Shown here piece by piece: positions 22,443 through 63,664 of a stretch of 64,000 nucleotides of DNA. The stretch is taken from IMG/VR virus record IMGVR_UViG_3300011972_000167; one strand, given 5' to 3'. The notes below the pieces were generated by a model. The model had not been told where the DNA came from. It ran no database searches and saw only the letters and a program-made list of their open reading frames with translations. How positions within the stretch are numbered: the stretch's first letter is position 1; every line of letters starts with the position of its first letter. A program made the translations under genes and the position numbers. The DNA comes from a virus (Duplodnaviria > Heunggongvirae > Uroviricota > Caudoviricetes).

Positions 22443-23516
22443 ATGGACTTAGGTTTAGATGGAGTAACTAGGGAGAATATGTCAATAGCAGGGTTGTATG
22501 TGGATAGAAATAACCCTGTAGAAACATTAACTTTCAGTAATTACAGGAACTTCAGTAAATTCAAATTATATAATATTGAGAAAGTTAAGTTGTGTTACTT
22601 TCCGAGTTTTGAGATAATAGATGTAAGTTTATCGGAGTTTATGGAGTTTTATAAAAGTACAGATACAAACAGTGATTTATATAAGAGGAGCAGATTAAAT
22701 ATAGATGGAACTAAGCTTATTCTTAATTGCCTTAAAGTTTGTATAGAGTCTGATATTTATGATACTACATATTCTTACAGATGCCATTCTTATAGTGGAG
22801 GTTTGTGTGTGCATTACTTGACTGATTTAGGTCATATTTGTATTTTTGATATAAATACGGGTATGCCTATAAAAGAGGCTGATTATGTTCAATTCGCAGT
22901 TAATGTAGTTAAAGGTTTATTTTATTCTTCCAAGTTAAATAAGCTTATTTTTAGTTATAATATACTTAATTATTTTGGTTTAAGCGAAAGGCATTCTCTT
23001 AATAGAGTAGAAATAGCTAGGCTAAATGGTGAGCCTAATCATTCTACAGTAAATAGTAAAGTACCTGTGCTATCTCGCACAACTTTAGATAAATTTGTAG
23101 AGCATTCTAATGGTTTTACTATTCTTTTAGATATTTGTGCTTTTAGTTTGGAAAAGAATGAAGATTTAGTTATAGTTAATCAAAATTGTAGAGAGTTGTA
23201 CATAAAAAGCAATGGAGATTATATAATAAATAATTTGGTGTTGAATAAGAGTATAGAGAATATAAAAGTTAATGGTAATTTTTCAGTAAAAAACTTATAC
23301 TACAGCAAAGATATTAAAAATAGCATAGTGATTTTTAAGGTTGTAAGGTATGTAATATCAGCTTATGCATTGATACCTCGTAAGAACTATATGAATAAGT
23401 TAGAGCAATTAATAGATAAGAATAACTTATATGGTTTAGCTAATTGTGAGTTTGAGAAAGAGGATGGTAGTATATTGATACTTAAAGATTTAATTAATAT
23501 ACAAGCAATAGATTAG
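22443..23516 (+). CDS. Paralogue family member 7
   Basis: IAGLYVD...FEIIDVSL; VIVNQNCRELYI...LVLNKSIENI...LYYSK. Confidence 0.6.
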   Translation: MDLGLDGVTRENMSIAGLYVDRNNPVETLTFSNYRNFSKFKLYNIEKVKLCYFPSFEIIDVSLSEFMEFYKSTDTNSDLYKRSRLNIDGTKLILNCLKVCIESDIYDTTYSYRCHSYSGGLCVHYLTDLGHICIFDINTGMPIKEADYVQFAVNVVKGLFYSSKLNKLIFSYNILNYFGLSERHSLNRVEIARLNGEPNHSTVNSKVPVLSRTTLDKFVEHSNGFTILLDICAFSLEKNEDLVIVNQNCRELYIKSNGDYIINNLVLNKSIENIKVNGNFSVKNLYYSKDIKNSIVIFKVVRYVISAYALIPRKNYMNKLEQLIDKNNLYGLANCEFEKEDGSILILKDLINIQAID

Positions 23517-46236: not shown

Positions 46237-46324
46237 ATTTTATAAACCTGTATTTGTTATAAATGTAAGTAAATTGGAATAATGTATTTATTTTTATAAC
46301 AAGTGTATGGAGGTGGATAACCTA

Positions 46325-48019
46325 ATGGGTTTAGAAATTAATGTAGATGATTTAAGCTATACAGATGATGATAGGTTAGTGGATAAAGATGGTAGAGAAG
46401 TTATCATGGATGGTGATGGCAACCTGTATTATGCAGATGAAACTAATCAATCTGATACAGAGATAAGTATAGCTGACTTACAATCACAGGAGATAAATAA
46501 CAGTCCAGATAGTTTATTAGAGAATACTGATGAATTAGTAAACATTTTTGATTCAGGCAGTACAGCTAGTGCAGATGATACAGAAGATACTGATGATATA
46601 TTAAGTACATCTAATTTAGATGATATGAATTATACAGGTTACAGTTCAGACTCTGAGGATACTGTTTTAGAAAGAGAGTCAGAAAGTAATAACATTCAAG
46701 AAGAGAACTCGAGCAGTAATAATACTAGCATAGCTACAGTTACTTCCAATGATTTTATAGATGACAGTGGAAATATAGTTGTAATGAGTTCTGGTGGTGG
46801 AGAAAATACTTTTGACATCGAGATTGTTAATTATAAAAATATAGCTGTACCTAGCAGAATAAGGAGCGGTAGAAATGTAGAGGATTTAGTTAAAAGTATC
46901 AAAGGAACTGGATTACTTAATCCAATAGTAGTAGCCCCTTTGATTACCTCTGGTAAATATGTTTTAATAGATGGTTATAGGCGTTTATTAGCTTGTGTAA
47001 AGTGTGGTATTACTGATATACCTGTTGTTGTAAATAACAGAATTAAGACTACTGAAGTTCCTGTATTAGAGGCTTTATATAACAGAAGTAAAAAATATAC
47101 CATGAAAGATATGGTAGATTATATAAATTACCTTGAGAAAGAAAAGGGAATAACCAATCCAACTACTATAGAGTACCTATTAGATTTAGATAGTGGAGAT
47201 TACAGTAAGTTAAAAGATATTATACTAGATAATGATCCTGATATAGTAGAAAAGTTATTACTAGGTCAGATGACAATCCAACAAGCTTTTAAGGCTCTTG
47301 AGAAAAGGCGTTCAAAGGAAAGTAAAGAGGAAAAAGACCTTAAGATGGCTTCCAATGTTTATTCTGATACAGAAGAGTCTGGGATAGATAGTATAGAAGC
47401 TGTAGGAGAGTTAGGAGATGAGGGTTCTGCTCTTACAGATGAGCAAGTAGAGAGTATAGGAACTGACTTAAGTAAGATAGATGATGACATAGAGGATAAA
47501 TCACTTGATGAAATGGTAGAAGAAAGTAATTCTACTGCTGGATTTGAGCCACATCAGCAAAAAGTAGGGGAAAGAGAGTATATAGACCCTATAATTAAAA
47601 AGACAGTCTTTGCCAGAGATAATTTCACTTGTAAGTGCTGTTTAGAGGGTGGTGAAAGCTATGTAGATGTTATGGACTTTCACCATGTATTGCCAGTTTA
47701 TTTGGGAGGTAAGGATACTCCTGATAATGGTGTAACACTTTGTGTTAAGTGTCATAGATTTGTTCACTTATGGAGTACAGGAGATTTACATTTACCTAAA
47801 GAAAAAACCGACTTAGAATTATCTGAACTTAGTGAAGAAGATAAATTTAAGTATAAAGCAGAGCAAGCTAAGTTTAAGAAGATAGTGTTTATAGGTAATA
47901 AAATAAGACAGGCTATGGCTCAAAGGGGAATAAACCGAGAGCAGTTTAAGAAAGAGCACAGTAATGCTGGCATAGGAAGAAGAAAACCAGGAGTTAATGC
48001 TCCTCAAGAAAAAGGTTAA
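46325..48019 (+). CDS. ParB-like domain fused to HNH endonuclease
   Basis: LVKSIKGTGLLNPIVV, LIDGYRR; C-terminal RDNFTCKCC, FHHVLP...GG...DNGVTLCVKCH; acidic N-terminus. Confidence 0.85.
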   Translation: MGLEINVDDLSYTDDDRLVDKDGREVIMDGDGNLYYADETNQSDTEISIADLQSQEINNSPDSLLENTDELVNIFDSGSTASADDTEDTDDILSTSNLDDMNYTGYSSDSEDTVLERESESNNIQEENSSSNNTSIATVTSNDFIDDSGNIVVMSSGGGENTFDIEIVNYKNIAVPSRIRSGRNVEDLVKSIKGTGLLNPIVVAPLITSGKYVLIDGYRRLLACVKCGITDIPVVVNNRIKTTEVPVLEALYNRSKKYTMKDMVDYINYLEKEKGITNPTTIEYLLDLDSGDYSKLKDIILDNDPDIVEKLLLGQMTIQQAFKALEKRRSKESKEEKDLKMASNVYSDTEESGIDSIEAVGELGDEGSALTDEQVESIGTDLSKIDDDIEDKSLDEMVEESNSTAGFEPHQQKVGEREYIDPIIKKTVFARDNFTCKCCLEGGESYVDVMDFHHVLPVYLGGKDTPDNGVTLCVKCHRFVHLWSTGDLHLPKEKTDLELSELSEEDKFKYKAEQAKFKKIVFIGNKIRQAMAQRGINREQFKKEHSNAGIGRRKPGVNAPQEKG

Positions 48020-51232: not shown

Positions 51233-51997
51233 ATGGATAAGGTTGATTATAAATTAAGTTCTTATGATTTAGATATACTACAGGGTTATGGTTATAGTAC
51301 TAAGTTTTGGGTAGATGAAAATGGAAAGCAATATTTAATTAAGATAGATACTCCACTACATGAGTCATTAAATGAGTATGCTTCCAGTCAATTAGCTTTA
51401 ACATTTTGTATAGACTGTGTAGTTTATGAGAAAATAAAAGTAGATTTGGATGGGTATGAGTATAGTGCTATCAAGTGTGAGAGTTATATTAAAGAAAATG
51501 ATGAAGAGCATACGGTATACAATATAATAAGAGAGTTTCCAAAACAAAAATTATTAAGTGCAGAAAAGTTTATTTGGTTATTAGATAGGCTATCTGAAAA
51601 AACAGGTGAAGATAAAGAGTACTTAAGAAATGGATTATTAAAAATAGCAACTTTTGATTATATAGTTTGCAACTTAGATAGGCACTTAAATAACATAGTA
51701 TTATTAAAATCTGATAAAGGTTACAGATTTTCACCTTTGTTTGACTTTGGAAGAACATTTGCAGGAGCCAAGGACATAAAAACTGATTCAGATATACAGT
51801 CAAGATTGAGAGAGTATTACACTATAAATAAAAGTATAATGAAAGAAATACAGAATATGGATATTGATTATAGTAAGAAACTTGTTAAGGAATGGTTAGA
51901 CACTTGTAATGGATATAAAGCCATAGATAATTTAGATATAGACTTAGGATATAAGAAATTGATAAAATACAGAATAAAACAGATATTAAGTTTATAA
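51233..51997 (+). CDS. HipA/CtkA-like Ser/Thr kinase domain protein 1
   Basis: GYSTKFW, YLIK, ESLNE, DYIVCNLDRHLNNI, FSPLFDFG. Confidence 0.8.
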   Translation: MDKVDYKLSSYDLDILQGYGYSTKFWVDENGKQYLIKIDTPLHESLNEYASSQLALTFCIDCVVYEKIKVDLDGYEYSAIKCESYIKENDEEHTVYNIIREFPKQKLLSAEKFIWLLDRLSEKTGEDKEYLRNGLLKIATFDYIVCNLDRHLNNIVLLKSDKGYRFSPLFDFGRTFAGAKDIKTDSDIQSRLREYYTINKSIMKEIQNMDIDYSKKLVKEWLDTCNGYKAIDNLDIDLGYKKLIKYRIKQILSL

Positions 51998-52009
51998 GGA
52001 GGATACAAA

Positions 52010-52384
52010 ATGAATATTATTGAATTTACTATAATGCACTGTGATACTAAATTAGTTGATATAAAGTTAGATTATGCAATAGGTAAATTAATAAGTTATC
52101 ATTTATACAAAGAGTGTCCACACTTAATAAAAATCTGTATTTGTGATTTTGATAATAAAACTGTTGTATACAGAGCATTAATAGACTGGTTAAAAGATAG
52201 GACAATACCAGAAGAAAGGGTCAATAGAGATTACATAATTAAAAAGGCTTATGGATTAAATCCCAATTTTGCTAATTTATTTGTTTTATTAGGTGTAGAC
52301 CATGGTGTTAGTGTACTGGATGACTTTTGGATTAAGTTTAGTGGAGAGGACATTAGATATGCAGATGTTAGAGTTAAGTACTAG
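52010..52384 (+). CDS. Small protein resembling a HipA N-terminal subdomain (HipS-like)
   Basis: WLKDRTIPEER...GVSVLDDFWIK, resembling the region preceding the kinase domain in Firmicute HipA-like proteins. Confidence 0.55.
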   Translation: MNIIEFTIMHCDTKLVDIKLDYAIGKLISYHLYKECPHLIKICICDFDNKTVVYRALIDWLKDRTIPEERVNRDYIIKKAYGLNPNFANLFVLLGVDHGVSVLDDFWIKFSGEDIRYADVRVKY

Positions 52385-53114
52385 CAATATATTTGGTTCT
52401 TATAGTTTAGGTGAGCAGTATAAATGTTGGCTTAATATAAAAGGAGTTAAACATCTTATCAAGATAAATACCAATTACAGAGAGTCACTAAAAGAAGTAA
52501 CTGCTTATAAATTAGCTAAAGCATTTGGGATACCTTGTGTAGAATATAAAGAGATACAAGTTAAATTTATGGGCTCTATCAGAAATGCCTGTATATGTAA
52601 AAGTTATTTAAGGGATAAAGAAAATAGCATAAGTTTATGGGGCAGTTTAGGTAATAGGTTTACTACAAAGAGAGGAGAGTCAGCCATTAGTTTATTTGAA
52701 AGAATTATAAAAAGCATTTCTTATAGACTAGGAATAAATGAAAGAAGTTTAGCTGATTATATAAAAACTATTTTAACATTTGATTATATCATCTGCAATA
52801 CAGACAGGCACTTAAACAACATAAGTTTTATAGAAAACAATGGTATTTACAGATTTGCTCCGATATATGATAATGGAAAATCTTTTCTAAACACAGATGG
52901 AGTATTAACTGACAGTGATTTAATATCAAGGAGCAATAAATATAAATCAAAGCCTTTTTCAAGTAATCCAAAGTCTAATATTATAGATAAGGATTACAGT
53001 AAAATTTTGGTAAATAAATGGTTAGAACATTCTGGGTGTTTAGATAGGCATATAATAAATAAAGGACATTTGAAGATAATAAAATACAGAATTAATAAGC
53101 TATTGAACTTATAG
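52359..53114 (+). CDS. HipA/CtkA-like Ser/Thr kinase domain protein 2
   Basis: GEQYKCW, HLIK, ESLKE, DYIICNTDRHLNNI, FAPIYDNG; start moved to ATG 52359. Confidence 0.8.
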   Translation: MQMLELSTSNIFGSYSLGEQYKCWLNIKGVKHLIKINTNYRESLKEVTAYKLAKAFGIPCVEYKEIQVKFMGSIRNACICKSYLRDKENSISLWGSLGNRFTTKRGESAISLFERIIKSISYRLGINERSLADYIKTILTFDYIICNTDRHLNNISFIENNGIYRFAPIYDNGKSFLNTDGVLTDSDLISRSNKYKSKPFSSNPKSNIIDKDYSKILVNKWLEHSGCLDRHIINKGHLKIIKYRINKLLNL

Positions 53115-60790: not shown

Positions 60791-60819
60791 TTGACAAGTA
60801 TAAGTTTATTTGTTATAAT
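60791..60819 (+). promoter_or_regulatory. Consensus sigmaA promoter of the RNA operon
   Basis: TTGACA-17 bp-TATAAT, extended -10 TG, A-rich upstream region. Confidence 0.88.
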
Positions 60820-60854
60820 ATAAGAGTAGTTTTCAATAAATAAATTTCTTTCGT

Positions 60855-60888
60855 TTAACCAGTTAAGGCTCTGGTCTAACAAAAGCCT
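60855..60888 (+). repeat. Pseudoknot-forming repeat copy 1
   Basis: TTAACCAGTTAAGGCTCTGGTCTAACAAAAGCCT; 33/34 identical to 61279-61312. Confidence 0.85.
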
Positions 60889-60889
60889 T

Positions 60890-60934
60890 AGTATAAAAGA
60901 TGGTTTTTATCAGGTTCAATTCCTGATTATACTT
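60890..60934 (+). ncRNA. Anticodon-less mini tRNA-like element 1
   Basis: Acceptor AGTATAA/TTATACT, T-arm TCAGG-TTCAATT-CCTGA, 13-nt connector containing TGG. Confidence 0.7.
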
Positions 60935-60989
60935 TGCCTATTAGGCAATTAATAACAGACTGCGACTGTTTTACTTCTCATGTAACAGT

Positions 60990-61039
60990 TAGATACTTGC
61001 AGACGGGCATTAAGATTGGTTCAAATCCATTGTATCTAA
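60990..61039 (+). ncRNA. Anticodon-less mini tRNA-like element 2
   Basis: Acceptor TAGATAC/GTATCTA, T-arm ATTGG-TTCAAAT-CCATT, D-like TGC-AGACGG-GCA. Confidence 0.65.
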
Positions 61040-61135
61040 TTCCACAGTTAATAATAGCGTGGATATGTGGTTTTAATACATTGTGTTCAATTCTTCCTAA
61101 AAATGAGCCTGATTTTTAGCTTTCAGGCTCGACAG

Positions 61136-61208
61136 GCTACCATAGCTCAGTCGGTAGAGCGTACGGCTGTTAACCGTATTGTCATAGGTTCGAGTCCTAT
61201 TGGTAGCG
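61136..61208 (+). tRNA. tRNA-Asn (GTT), no encoded CCA
   Basis: GCTACCA/TGGTAGC, D-arm GCTC/GAGC, TACGG-CTGTTAA-CCGTA, ATAGG-TTCGAGT-CCTAT. Confidence 0.95.
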
Positions 61209-61278
61209 TTGCCCTTGAGGCAATAGGTGTTTGGCGTTAAAAGTCTGTATTAGGTTACAGATTATCCCCTTATTATCA

Positions 61279-61312
61279 TTAACCAGTTAAGGCTCTGGTA
61301 TAACAAAAGCCT
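61279..61312 (+). repeat. Pseudoknot-forming repeat copy 2
   Basis: TTAACCAGTTAAGGCTCTGGTATAACAAAAGCCT. Confidence 0.85.
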
Positions 61313-61318
61313 GTATAA

Positions 61319-61391
61319 AGCAGGATAGAGCAAATGGTAGCTCACTGGATTCATACTCCAGAGGTTATAGGTTCAAGTCCTATTCCTGCAA
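61319..61391 (+). tRNA. tRNA-Met (CAT), initiator-like, no encoded CCA
   Basis: A1:A72 mismatch above GCAGGA/TCCTGC, D-arm GAGC/GCTC, CTGGA-TTCATAC-TCCAG, ATAGG-TTCAAGT-CCTAT. Confidence 0.9.
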
Positions 61392-61460
61392 TAAGCACTT
61401 TGTGCTTCTTGTAACATATTTATTCCTTTCTTCAGGCTACCGTGAGGTAGCCTGAAGTAT

Positions 61461-61575
61461 GGCAAAGTAGTTTAATGTAAAACAAATAGGCACTTCCTTG
61501 TATTGATAACTTCATTACAAATATACTCATCACAACAACTACCTATTGATTAGGGTGCAAGTCCCTACTTTGCTA
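61461..61575 (+). ncRNA. tRNA-like RNA with 51-nt expanded anticodon loop
   Basis: GGCAAAG/CTTTGCT acceptor, TA-GTTT...AAAC D-arm, AATAGG/CCTATT stem enclosing 61491-61541, TAGGG-TGCAAGT-CCCTA T-arm. Confidence 0.75.
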
Positions 61576-61713
61576 ATTGCCTTCTTAGGCATAAAAGACT
61601 CCATTTCAATTTTTTGGGTAGGATAGGTTAGCTGATAAATTATCCTTTTAAGTTTTTAATGTTGTTTTATGTTTTTTAGTATACCATATAAACAGCTAAC
61701 CTATCTAAAATAA

Positions 61714-61797
61714 ACAGGTATGGCGGAATAGGTAGACGCAGAGGACTTAAAATCCTCTTATAGAAATATAGTGCCAGTTCAAGTCTGGTTATCTGTA
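61714..61797 (+). tRNA. tRNA-Leu (TAA), no encoded CCA
   Basis: ACAGGTA/TATCTGT, GCGGAATAGGTAGACGC, GAGGA-CTTAAAA-TCCTC, long variable arm, GCCAG-TTCAAGT-CTGGT. Confidence 0.93.
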
Positions 61798-61874
61798 TGA
61801 GTAGTTAACATTGGGCATGGTGATGGCTACTTACTTACTTCGCATATTTCTCACCTGAGAAACTTCCAACTTTT

Positions 61875-61900
61875 AAGGCACTGGTTTCAGTGCCTTTTTA
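61875..61900 (+). terminator. Intrinsic terminator closing the RNA operon
   Basis: AAGGCACTG-GTTT-CAGTGCCTT + T tract. Confidence 0.85.
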
Positions 61901-61922
61901 ATTTTTAAGGAGAAAATAGTTT

Positions 61923-62699
61923 ATGAGTACTAACTTATTAGGTATGCTTAGAAAAATAGAATCAGATAATAGTATAGAAATTATATTTGCTTGTGATATA
62001 GGCAGTAGAGCATTAGGATATTCTACTGAAAACAGCGATTATGATATCAGATTTATTTATATACAACATTCTAAAAAGTATCTAACTATAGATAAAAATA
62101 AATTTAATGATACAATTAAATTTAATAAAGACAATTTAGATTTTATAGGATATGACATTAAAAAAGCGTTAAATTTCTGTTTAACTTCTAATACAGCTTT
62201 GTGGGATATGATTTACTCAAGTTCTGTTATTTTAGAAACTAGCTTATGTAATGATATTAAGAATATAGCTAAAAAGTTTTTTAATAAAAAGACTCTTATA
62301 AAGCAATATACAGCTAATGCTTATAACAGATATACTAAATACATACTAAATAAAGATACTGTTAAAATAAAGGATTATGCTTTAACTTTAGTAAAGCTAG
62401 CTTTAGCTATAGCTATTTCAAGAGATACTTTTAATAAAGATACTGTGATTAAGGCAAATTTATCAAATTGTTTTAGCATATACCCAAAAGATATGTCAAA
62501 TACTTTAGAAAATTTAATAAAGCTTAGATTAAGAGGTAATGAATACACACAAAGGATAGAATTATTTGATAATTACATTAAATATTATATAGAAATACTT
62601 GATAAAATAGAAAAGACTTTAGTTTATGATACATCAGATAATAATTTAGATGAATATTTTTATAAGTTAATAGTGTTTAGATTAAGTAAAGGTAAGTAG
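61923..62699 (+). CDS. Pol-beta superfamily nucleotidyltransferase (YcgL/RlaP-like)
   Basis: GSRALGYSTENSDYDIRFIY, YDIKKAL. Confidence 0.8.
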   Translation: MSTNLLGMLRKIESDNSIEIIFACDIGSRALGYSTENSDYDIRFIYIQHSKKYLTIDKNKFNDTIKFNKDNLDFIGYDIKKALNFCLTSNTALWDMIYSSSVILETSLCNDIKNIAKKFFNKKTLIKQYTANAYNRYTKYILNKDTVKIKDYALTLVKLALAIAISRDTFNKDTVIKANLSNCFSIYPKDMSNTLENLIKLRLRGNEYTQRIELFDNYIKYYIEILDKIEKTLVYDTSDNNLDEYFYKLIVFRLSKGK

Positions 62700-62803
62700 C
62701 CTAGGTTAGTAAAAAACAGCTTATAAATACTATAAAATTGATTTTAATTTGCTTAGATTGTTTATAGAGTAAGAGTATTAATTTAATTTTGGAGGTAGAT
62801 GTT

Positions 62804-63664
62804 ATGTTGTATTGTATAGCCGTAATAGTGGATGGAAAAGGTACGGAACTTGGATTCAGATTATTAGATACTAAGCTTATTGGTGCTAAAGGTGTTGAAA
62901 AGACAAAGAATTTTTCTACTAATGTTATTTTAGCAAAGCTTAAAGAGGAGCCTGATTCAATAGCTAACTTAGGTATTAGGGATGGTAAAGTAATAGGTAC
63001 TAATGGAGTATTGGACAGATATACCAAGATAAGCCAAGACAATCAGTCTGTTTCAGAGCCAAGAATGGTAGTTTTATTCAGAACAGATAGCGGTTTTATT
63101 GTAACCGATGGATTCGGAAATGTTACATCTGTTAGTGATAAAGGTGTACTAGAACTTAATAAAAAAGCGGATGTATCAAATGGAAAGCTAGTATCCAAAG
63201 ATGGAAAAGAGTTTATAAGCTCTATAGTGGGTGAGTACCCATTTATGGAGGCTAAGAAAAAGGCAGAAGTTAAGAAAGCAGAGTTATTGTTTATTTCACC
63301 TTCTGATACAGTGCCTCAAATGATAGAAAAGTTTGAAAAGCATGTGAAAAATCCAGAATATAGGGTTATAGGTAAATTAGATTATGCTTTAAGCTTTGAT
63401 TTACTTAGTGGTTTGTTTTATAGACATGGCTTAGGAGAGTATTCAAAAAATCAGGATACCAAAAAGTTAACAGAGGCAATAGTTTATATGAAAGACCATG
63501 CAATACCTGATTTGAAGAGAATTTGTGATAAAAAGGCTATATTTGAATATGTGCAAGGAATTAAGGAAGTGGCTAAGGGATTAAGTTCAGCAGATGCGGC
63601 GGCGGATATGGCAATAGCTTTAGCGGAATCTCTTAAGAAAGATAAAGTAAGCTTTTCAAACTAG
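62804..63664 (+). CDS. Hypothetical protein with the element's recurrent N-terminal domain
   Basis: YCIAVI...LGFRLLD...IANL...VIGTNGVLDRY resembles the N-terminus of 27040..29475. Confidence 0.7.
   Translation: MLYCIAVIVDGKGTELGFRLLDTKLIGAKGVEKTKNFSTNVILAKLKEEPDSIANLGIRDGKVIGTNGVLDRYTKISQDNQSVSEPRMVVLFRTDSGFIVTDGFGNVTSVSDKGVLELNKKADVSNGKLVSKDGKEFISSIVGEYPFMEAKKKAEVKKAELLFISPSDTVPQMIEKFEKHVKNPEYRVIGKLDYALSFDLLSGLFYRHGLGEYSKNQDTKKLTEAIVYMKDHAIPDLKRICDKKAIFEYVQGIKEVAKGLSSADAAADMAIALAESLKKDKVSFSN

Follow-up and report, generated by a model that had tools for sequence, protein, structure and literature searches.

Clusters of transfer RNA (tRNA) genes in phages are usually taken as codon-supply genes, and the spacers between the genes are ignored. 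The subject of the present study is positions 60791 to 61900 of a 64,000-nucleotide (nt) stretch of DNA from a virus of the class Caudoviricetes (IMG/VR record IMGVR_UViG_3300011972_000167), the whole of which is called the window below. These positions are a phage tRNA operon, in which three conserved tRNA-shaped RNAs (mimics A, B, and C) are encoded as well and a small, widespread pseudoknot, called the knot below, occurs twice. Several described systems can be compared with such a locus. At the 3′ end of the eukaryotic MALAT1 and MEN-beta RNAs, a triple helix is followed by the tRNA-like mascRNA, which is cut by RNase P. In engineered tRNA-guide RNA arrays and tRNA scaffolds, tRNAs mark the places where RNase P and RNase Z cut, and foreign RNA placed in the anticodon arm is stabilized; the t-elements of plant mitochondria are another comparison. 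The 3′ external transcribed spacer (3′ETS) of the Escherichia coli glyW-cysT-leuZ operon reportedly sponges Hfq-bound small RNAs. Ribozymes like that of hepatitis delta virus (HDV) cut at their own 5′ end. Theta ribozymes are minimal HDV-like ribozymes found beside the tRNAs of gut phages, often suppressor tRNAs, and were proposed to process 3′ trailers (PMC10879173). In phage T4, two small RNAs of unknown role are made from the tRNA region (PMC3014915). The coremin motif (xrRNA-C) of plant RNA viruses is described as a small, knot-like, mechanical block to exonucleases, in which a short hairpin is followed by a spacer of ∼10 nt that reads GUUAAA... and pairs at its end with the hairpin loop (PMC10321173).

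The operon resembles the T4, E. coli spacer, theta, coremin, MALAT1, and engineered systems in kind and belongs to none of them. With the T4 RNAs, RNAC and RNAD, it shares the production of small non-tRNA RNAs from a phage tRNA cluster, a likeness of kind and location only, and it differs in having several kinds of element, i.e., two types of mimic and the knot. When the array was compared with a phage collection by blastn, 102 records matched, and among the 30 matches listed the similarity was confined to tRNA-sized stretches of at most 9% of the query, while the T4 RNAs were not compared directly. Like the engineered arrays and scaffolds, the operon places tRNA units between other RNAs, and mimic C has the layout of an anticodon-arm insert, but the engineered systems are man-made, whereas the phage operon is without a demonstrated guide function or target. 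An earlier note on this DNA had proposed that the spacers are set free as end-protected small RNAs, each of which uses its pyrimidine-rich segment to pair with the Shine-Dalgarno (SD) sequence and start codon of one messenger RNA (mRNA) and to block translation of that mRNA at the ribosome-binding site (RBS). We consider it reasonably probable, instead, that the locus is an operon of tRNAs together with tRNA mimics, in which hairpin- or knot-clamped spacers act as processing and end-protection modules rather than as gene-specific anti-RBS guides. In this phage family, selection keeps three further kinds of RNA in the tRNA cluster: mimics without an anticodon arm, a tRNA scaffold with a variable insert, and a 30-nt knot.

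Relatives of the operon

Relatives were retrieved from viral contigs with a 16-base stretch of the 34-nt repeat that contains the knot and then with a stricter DNA pattern. They fall into four levels of divergence, i.e., locus L090, which is 96% identical over 1993 nt; L101, 94%; L092 and L095, 70 to 86% in alignable blocks; and L099, L100, L105, and L011, which are less similar. The L011 lineage is a true relative: a 287-aa protein encoded after its array (L115, on the same contig) is 74% identical to the 291-aa protein encoded at 62789–63664 of the window. All relatives have in common the promoter, the mimics, tRNA-Asn, the knots, tRNA-Met, mimic C, tRNA-Leu, and the trailer, and the more distant ones carry extra units, namely tRNA-Glu, tRNA-Ser, and one further mimic. 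A search pattern made from the 3′ end of tRNA-Leu and the trailer found seven loci, among which the only relative was the already known L011 contig.

A small pseudoknot beside phage tRNAs and stop codons

The knot occurs twice in the operon:

60857–60888, plus strand: knot copy 1, with helix P1 ACCAG/CUGGU, loop L1 UUA, helix P2 AGGCU/AGCCU, and an A-rich loop L3; ends 1 nt before mimic A (covariance model R1, 50.5 bits, E 7e-11)
61281–61312, plus strand: knot copy 2, ending 6 nt before tRNA-Met (model R1, 51.9 bits, E 3e-11)

The copies lie in a 34-nt direct repeat (60855–60888 and 61279–61312, 97% identical) that folds as an H-type knot, and model R1 found no others in the 64-kb window, the next match having an E value of 0.13. 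The knot is ∼30 nt long and reads CCAGUUA-P2-CUGG-UUAUCAAA-P2′. Its parts are P1, N-CCAG/CUGG-N′; L1, UUA; a 5-nt P2 that directly abuts P1; L3, (N)UUAUCAAA; and then the partner strand of P2. Among 22 aligned copies, in which L3 reads (G)UUAUCAAA or UUAACAAA, P1, L1, and the four A's of L3 are invariant or nearly so, while in four of the five P2 pairs both partners vary. Pairing of the outer P1 bases, on which the copies were not selected, is kept in 20 of 21 copies, with five pair types. A search pattern in which P1, L1, AAAA, and a single P2 base were set and the other P2 bases left free gave 75 loci in viral contigs, corresponding to 44 distinct sequences; 12 of the 44 have all five P2 pairs, with eight different P2 sequences, against a mean of 1.15 and a maximum of 6 when the partner strands were permuted (2000 permutations). 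Weaker copies with L1 UUG (L092:824–861 and 1117–1153, and L090:1073–1109) or with a 6-bp P2 (L092:1349–1388) score 19.6 to 40.2 bits with R1, which indicates that the family extends beyond the strict pattern. A strict form of the pattern, searched in 596 billion bases of prokaryote genomes, occurred at three loci only.

No Rfam family, including preQ1-I, HDV-like, tmRNA, and pistol, matched the knot at E ≤ 10 in the window region and five other knot-bearing loci, and judged from these searches the knot is not in Rfam 15. A description of the motif did not turn up in the literature that was searched for knots beside phage tRNAs, although the 10,006 candidate RNAs in the supplements of PMC10690425 were unchecked and the motif could be there.

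The knot was found across many unrelated uncultured phages, either just before tRNAs or 7 to 11 nt past stop codons. The gaps between the knot and the following tRNA or mimic, measured by eye, are 1 and 6 nt in the window, 8 and 11 nt in L011/L100, 5 nt in L092, 2 nt in L060, 8 nt in L102 (anticodon tta) and in L104, and 6 nt in L006/L093 (anticodon tca); in the knot-plus-mimic units of the relatives, the two elements are 5 to 8 nt apart. With a strict T-loop expression, a T loop lies 25 to 80 nt downstream in 11 of 41 distinct knot contexts, where 0.017 per context is expected. In nine contexts, the knot follows, on the same strand, the stop codon of an open reading frame (ORF) of at least 60 codons, starting 7, 7, 7, 7, 7, 8, 9, 11, and 11 nt after it (L001, L016, L018, L028, L029, L033, L103, and L107, the last with two copies). 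At about this spacing (7 to 11 nt), the knot would stay folded in front of a terminating ribosome, and it may serve there in mRNA 3′ protection, read-through, or coupling. It also occurs in the 5′ leader of an ORF, with the RBS 6 nt downstream (L017), and before a terminator (L052).

Known small knots were considered as candidates. The loop L2 of preQ1-I riboswitches has a ligand-pairing C between P2 and P1. Identity of the knot with this family (RF00522) was rejected because there is no family match at E ≤ 10 and because no base lies between the 5′ strand of P2 and the 3′ strand of P1 in any of the 22 aligned copies. The knot resembles the theta ribozymes in being a small structured RNA set directly against phage tRNAs, including those with stop-reading anticodons (L102, tta; L006/L093, tca). 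Theta ribozymes, however, are described at tRNA 3′ trailers, whereas the knot lies 5′ of the tRNA, is ∼30 nt long, and consists of two helices without a nested double knot. Membership among HDV-like or theta ribozymes is not supported: two helices are present instead of the nested double pseudoknot of P1, P1.1, P2, and P3, and no HDV-like family matched at E ≤ 10 in the window region or the five other loci. The coremin motif is likewise a small H-type-like knot, and its spacer resembles L3. It needs a loop YGAD (or YGNNAD), a spacer end CUAC, and a second hairpin downstream (PMC10321173), whereas the phage knot has a loop of UUA plus five variable nucleotides, five Watson-Crick P2 pairs, and a spacer that ends in the variable P2 strand; the second hairpin is not always present (e.g., L017), and the host is without Xrn1. 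The loop, the variable spacer end, and the lack of a hairpin directly after the knot in several loci do not fit coremin/xrRNA-C.

Some individual knot loci are described here as observations in their own right. In L060, an unrelated viral contig, a ROOL RNA (1–369; RF03087, 175.7 bits, cut at the start of the locus) is followed by the knot (401–433) and by tRNA-Asn (436–510), which starts 2 nt later. In gut-type contigs, L102 has the knot at 1501–1530 and a tRNA with anticodon tta at 1538–1613, and L006 has the knot at 2501–2531 and a tRNA with anticodon tca at 2538–2635. The knot thus stands 6 to 8 nt before tRNAs with stop-reading anticodons in L102 (tta) and L006/L093 (tca, called as tRNA-SeC). 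The related contig L104 has tRNA-Lys at the place of the stop-reading tRNA, and L001, L091, and L096 have a HU-like gene only.

Three tRNAs and three tRNA mimics

Six tRNA-shaped units are present on the plus strand of the operon:

∼60890–60936, plus strand: mimic A, acceptor stem AGUAUAA/UUAUACU and T arm, joined by a 13-nt link containing GG; no anticodon arm, no CCA; the unit folds in relatives
60989–61039, plus strand: mimic B, acceptor stem, D-like hairpin with GG loop, and T arm; anticodon arm absent; a homologous unit is found in L092/L095 by blastn, folds, and alignment
61136–61208, plus strand: tRNA-Asn (GTT), ARAGORN; Rfam 74.1 bits
61319–61391, plus strand: tRNA-Met (CAT), ARAGORN; Rfam 62.8 bits; A1/A72 mismatch, with 1:72 non-standard in the Rfam alignment
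61461–61575, plus strand: mimic C, acceptor, D, and T arms and a long anticodon-like arm closed by AAUAGG/CCUAUU, with an insert of ∼50 nt (folds and alignment)
61714–61797, plus strand: tRNA-Leu (TAA), ARAGORN; Rfam 54.9 bits

The earlier note had counted six tRNA or tRNA-like folds without CCA. Six T-loop motifs are indeed present (at 60913, 61018, 61187, 61370, 61554, and 61776), and no unit has CCA at its 3′ side, but only three are true tRNAs and the others are tRNA-like only: a cloverleaf above the RF00005 gathering threshold of 29 bits with a 7-nt anticodon loop was found in three of the six (Asn, Met, and Leu), in agreement with ARAGORN. The three tRNAs, with Leu reading UUA, would fit the AT-rich codon use of the phage. 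A mismatch at 1:72, such as that of the tRNA-Met, is a mark of bacterial initiator tRNAs; the anticodon stem of this tRNA is closed by only two G-C pairs.

Mimics A, B, and C were not called by ARAGORN and had no Rfam match at E ≤ 10 except a transfer-messenger RNA (tmRNA) fragment of 6.7 bits on one T loop. In mimics A and B, a 7-bp acceptor stem is joined to the T arm by 13 to 18 nt, and a D-arm-like hairpin with a GG loop is present in B and in the related arrays. In mimic C, the insert of ∼50 nt consists of a small hairpin and CU-rich single strands. Across clades the scaffold of mimic C is conserved and the insert is variable: the long arm is closed by AAUAGG/CCUAUU in one clade and by CUGUAGU/ACUACAG and UUGGGGA/UCCUCAA in two others, one G-C pair of the T stem has become A-U with both sides changed, and the CU-rich motif of the insert differs in position between clades. 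A tRNA with an intron is ruled out for mimic C, because no conserved start of an anticodon loop (no U33 and no common anticodon) is found in the three clades. A mini-tmRNA is also ruled out, because mimic C has C3:G70 where tmRNA has G3:U70 and because it contains no conserved reading frame; the tmRNA search of ARAGORN gave no hit in the window.

Between the window and L090, the differences amount to 1.2% in the tRNA mimics (2/163), 2.0% in the insert of mimic C (1/51), 2.6% in the tRNAs (6/230), 3.1% in the knots (2/64), 4.1% in unpaired spacer regions (12/294), and 5.1% in spacer stems (14/273), all per-class counts being small numbers. The low divergence of the mimics argues against pseudogenes, and the sequence comparisons indicate that the mimics are under constraint.

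Spacers, leader, and trailer

The tRNA-shaped units and the knots are embedded in the following elements, where z is that of the fold against shuffled sequences:

60791–60819, plus strand: promoter TTGACA, 17 nt, TG-n-TATAAT, a 12/12 sigma-70 match with extended −10 and a conserved A/T-rich tract upstream
60826–60856, plus strand: AU-rich 5′ leader, predicted to be unpaired (fold prediction; transcription start placed from the promoter position)
60937–60988, plus strand: spacer 1, a small hairpin followed by what may be a second knot (AACAG/CUGUU with ACUG/CAGU, by eye) that abuts mimic B; z −1.0
61040–61135, plus strand: spacer 2, hairpins 61041–61063 and 61065–61081, linker, and a strong hairpin 61105–61130 ending 5 nt before tRNA-Asn; z −2.6
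61209–61318, plus strand: spacer 3, hairpins 61210–61222 and 61242–61263, linker, and knot copy 2; z −1.7
61392–61460, plus strand: spacer 4, hairpin 61393–61407, unpaired linker 61408–61429, and a 12-bp hairpin 61430–61457; z −6.2, 0/200 shuffles as good
61577–61713, plus strand: spacer 5, hairpin 61578–61591, linker, and a long hairpin 61621–61706 ending 7 nt before tRNA-Leu; z −2.6; contains the 13-nt perfect inverted repeat I7
61798–61900, plus strand: 3′ trailer (spacer 6), hairpins 61798–61833 and 61847–61862, unpaired ACUUCCAAC (AACCUCC in relatives), and terminator; z −3.7, 0/200 shuffles as good
61875–61896, plus strand: intrinsic terminator

The statement of the earlier note that one promoter and one terminator bracket the array is borne out. 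The promoter hexamers and the upstream A/T tract are retained among the relatives; promoter-like sites as a class are not enriched in the window (11 found against 13.2 ± 3.8 in shuffles), and that at 60791–60819 is the sole perfect match. The layout that the same note had ascribed to the spacers, in which a 5′ hairpin, an unpaired linker, and a strong 3′ hairpin or pseudoknot succeed one another, holds for part of them. The hairpin form is found in four of the seven spacers (2, 4, 5, and the trailer), a knot is the last element of spacers 0 and 3, and the knots at 60857–60888 and 61281–61312 do abut the next unit. The folds of spacers 1 and 3 do not stand out from those of shuffles. Spacer sequences are mostly unalignable between clades, and the relatives also have a strong hairpin 0 to 2 nt before tRNA-Asn, the sequence of which is unrelated.

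The trailer is the best-conserved spacer and consists of a 10-bp hairpin flush with the 3′ end of tRNA-Leu, a second hairpin, the unpaired AACCUCC, and the terminator. CCUCC is present in six of seven trailers (L092, L095, L099, L100, L105, and L090), while the window has ACUUCC at 61860–61868. AACCUCC is close to the anti-SD sequence of 16S ribosomal RNA, and CCTCC occurs only six times on the plus strand of the whole window. Another motif, AAC-YUCAU (GACUCCAU in the window, 61597–61604), was noticed by eye after the hairpin that follows mimic C in three clades (window, L092, L099, and L100).

Complementarity of the spacers to translation starts

The four strings that the earlier note had singled out as strong reverse complements of translation starts are present letter for letter. 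The 697 nt of spacer contain 4 minus-strand SD words followed after 4 to 10 nt by ATG, where 1000 dinucleotide shuffles give 1.10 ± 1.03 (P 0.024), although the pattern was defined post hoc; the whole array of the window has 5 against 1.72 (P 0.037), and that of the 96% identical L090 has 6 (P 0.003). The conservation of this anti-SD/CAT spacing was lost beyond the relatives of 94 to 96% identity, and the counts were at chance level in all six more distant arrays, i.e., L092, 3 (P 0.52); L095, 3 (0.53); L099, 1 (0.91); L100, 5 (0.12); L105, 3 (0.47); and L011, 5 (0.14). The pattern, therefore, does not outlast a divergence of ∼5%. In the trailer homologous to 61835–61856, no CAT was found in other clades. 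Anti-SD 4-mers number 12 in the window array against 9.1 ± 3.3 in shuffles, and neither 4-mers nor 5-mers were in excess over dinucleotide shuffles in four arrays (P 0.08–0.61). The pyrimidine richness that had been noted in the segments is real, but reflects composition, with 18% C in the array against 10% on the coding plus strand. In the minimum-energy folds, only one of the four strong strings (61408–61430) is fully unpaired, and the other three overlap predicted helices.

The phage genes use strong SD sites, with GGAG upstream of 42 of 59 called starts. When the seven segments named earlier and seven further linkers were compared with the 58 translation starts of the window, none of the 14 reached 0.05, the fraction of shuffles at least as good being 0.08 to 0.93 with 100 shuffles per segment and the two best being 0.08 and 0.09; the screen covered these 58 phage starts only, and no host genome. 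Complementarity and conservation both came out against the spacers as gene-specific RBS blockers, so that this part of the proposal is left unsupported, whereas its tRNA-punctuation half is a reasonable model. The anti-RBS look-alikes in such spacers follow from base composition, which should temper similar calls elsewhere.

Proposed processing and end protection

RNase P cuts tRNAs at their 5′ side, and in Bacillus subtilis RNase Z cuts CCA-less precursors after the discriminator. All six units of the operon have a T-loop motif, an acceptor stem of 6 to 7 bp, and no encoded CCA, which are the features expected of cut marks for the two enzymes. Host RNase P would cut 5′ of each unit, and RNase Z would cut after the discriminator of all six, because all lack CCA. 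The cuts would release the three tRNAs and the three small mimics, along with spacer RNAs that are closed on both sides by a helix or knot. The mimics, which keep the features for RNase P recognition, could be cut marks, decoys, or substrates for tRNA-end enzymes. For the knot, the prediction is a compact cap by which an RNA end beside a cut site or stop codon is marked or protected. Its invariant P1, L1, and L3 together with the free P2 suggest a fixed three-dimensional shape that is read by a common partner or acts as a mechanical cap, and a role in marking or protecting RNA ends would agree with where it stands, a short way before predicted RNase P sites or slightly farther on than a terminating ribosome reaches. 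In the four arrays compared, all 21 units have a predicted helix that ends at most 11 nt before the 5′ end, and at most 7 nt before it in 20 of them, and another that begins no more than 5 nt past the 3′ end; the helix sequences are unrelated. The counts come from minimum-energy folds of 45 to 50 nt with no shuffle control, and weak helices (−1 to −3 kcal/mol) are among those counted.

Besides the limits of this helix count, several points weigh against the processing and end-protection reading. Spacer stems diverge between the window and L090 as fast as linkers do (5.1% versus 4.1%), which means no extra constraint on the stems over short distances. The knot also occurs far from any tRNA, so its role cannot be tied to RNase P alone. 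A purely structural role leaves unexplained the two unpaired motifs kept across clades, AACCUCC in six of seven trailers and AAC-YUCAU, and the SD-plus-ATG pattern of the window is nominally above shuffles (P 0.024–0.037). The processing sites, product stability, and transcript ends are all inferred from sequence.

The rival that survives best, to which we give a minor though appreciable share of the probability, is that the products act in trans in a way other than gene-specific RBS blocking: enzymes or host defenses that read acceptor ends would take the mimics as decoys or substrates, mimic C would be a scaffold that displays its variable CU-rich insert, and the trailer would be a general sponge or SD mimic. 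The mimics diverge less than the true tRNAs and keep their folds through compensatory changes, although without an anticodon loop they could not be decoys for anticodon nucleases. The conserved scaffold and variable insert of mimic C speak for display, whereas the CU-rich motif stands at different places in each clade. As for the trailer, the unpaired AACCUCC lies between hairpin and terminator in most relatives, but the window itself has ACUUCC instead of ACCUCC, and anti-SD words are at the level predicted from composition. An RlaP nucleotidyltransferase gene (‘RNA repair pathway DNA polymerase beta family’; PF10127, E 4e-35) lies at 61923–62699, 27 nt past the terminator of the operon, and may act on the CCA-less tRNA ends of the operon. 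A stretch matching the RlaP region also follows the array in L092/L095 (blastn across 61715–62080), but the gene is missing from the L100/L011 clade, where the next gene comes directly after the terminator. A bacterial tRNA-operon spacer that acts as an RNA sponge, the leuZ 3′ETS, is in print, and it reportedly survives processing and acts by base pairing; the trailer at 61798–61900 likewise follows the last tRNA and runs to the terminator. That spacer is also the nearest natural precedent for the earlier anti-RBS idea, from which it differs in that it reportedly sponges Hfq-bound small RNAs and blocks no RBS.

A bolder version, which we regard as speculative and rather improbable, rests on the analogy with MALAT1. 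As in MALAT1 and MEN-beta, a tRNA-shaped unit follows closely on a compact tertiary structure rich in A, both in knot 1 with mimic A, 1 nt apart, and in the knot-plus-mimic units of the relatives, and a cut between the two elements would leave a protective 3′ cap. The knot and the anticodon-less mimic might thus be the phage counterpart of the triple-helix/mascRNA device, with the RNase P cut leaving a knot-capped 3′ end, and the operon might be a factory of stable, clamp-ended noncoding RNAs, including the tRNA-scaffolded CU-rich insert and the AACCUCC trailer, that act in trans on host or phage translation. The known device, however, is eukaryotic and nuclear and uses a U-A-U triple helix, whereas on the phage side the structure is an H-type knot, cutting and protection are predicted, and the knot also occurs without a following tRNA-like unit.

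Decay of the three tRNA-like units as tRNA pseudogenes, with spacers that are neutral filler and form hairpins by chance in AT-rich DNA, is an unlikely account. The silence of ARAGORN and Rfam on the three units would agree with decay, as would the true tRNAs (Glu and Ser) that relatives have where the window has none, which implies that the array gains and loses units; the spacers, largely unalignable between clades, include two (1 and 3) that fold no better than many shuffles. On the other hand, clades with only 70 to 86% identity elsewhere have mimics B and C as well as the knot-plus-mimic unit, their stems being kept by changes on both sides, and the mimics diverge no faster than the tRNAs. 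Spacers 4 and 6 fold far better than shuffles, and the knot family covaries strongly across unrelated phages. The anti-RBS proposal is the least probable of all and is very doubtful, since the strings that exist as written, the nominal excess of SD-plus-ATG words, the helices at both spacer ends, and the strong SD sites of the phage are outweighed by chance counts in all distant arrays, by the lack of pairing better than shuffles with the 58 starts of the window, and by strings that lie partly within helices.

Should the knot mark or protect RNA ends, phage RNA processing would have in it a simple, portable element, and the knot would be a candidate for use in the stabilization of RNAs in bacteria.

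Genomic setting

The window has ∼30% GC, carries all its long ORFs on the plus strand, and is phage-like, with genes for topoisomerase II subunits, a DnaB-like helicase, thymidylate kinase, a tail-lysin-like NlpC/P60 protein, and two HipA_C-like kinases. A Pfam search with 10 neighboring proteins gave no match, and protein searches with RlaP and the 72-aa ORF upstream gave no relatives in viral contigs. A further ARAGORN call, a 99-nt tRNA-Ile (gat) at 22810–22908, lies within an ORF (22443–23516) and is unsupported by Rfam at the gathering score, and is probably a false call. The two HipA_C-like kinase domains (E 1.5e-8 and 1.9e-12) are encoded by adjacent genes, at 51233–51997 and 52302–53114, here in a phage. 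At 46307–48019, a single protein combines a ParB N-terminal domain with an HNH endonuclease domain.

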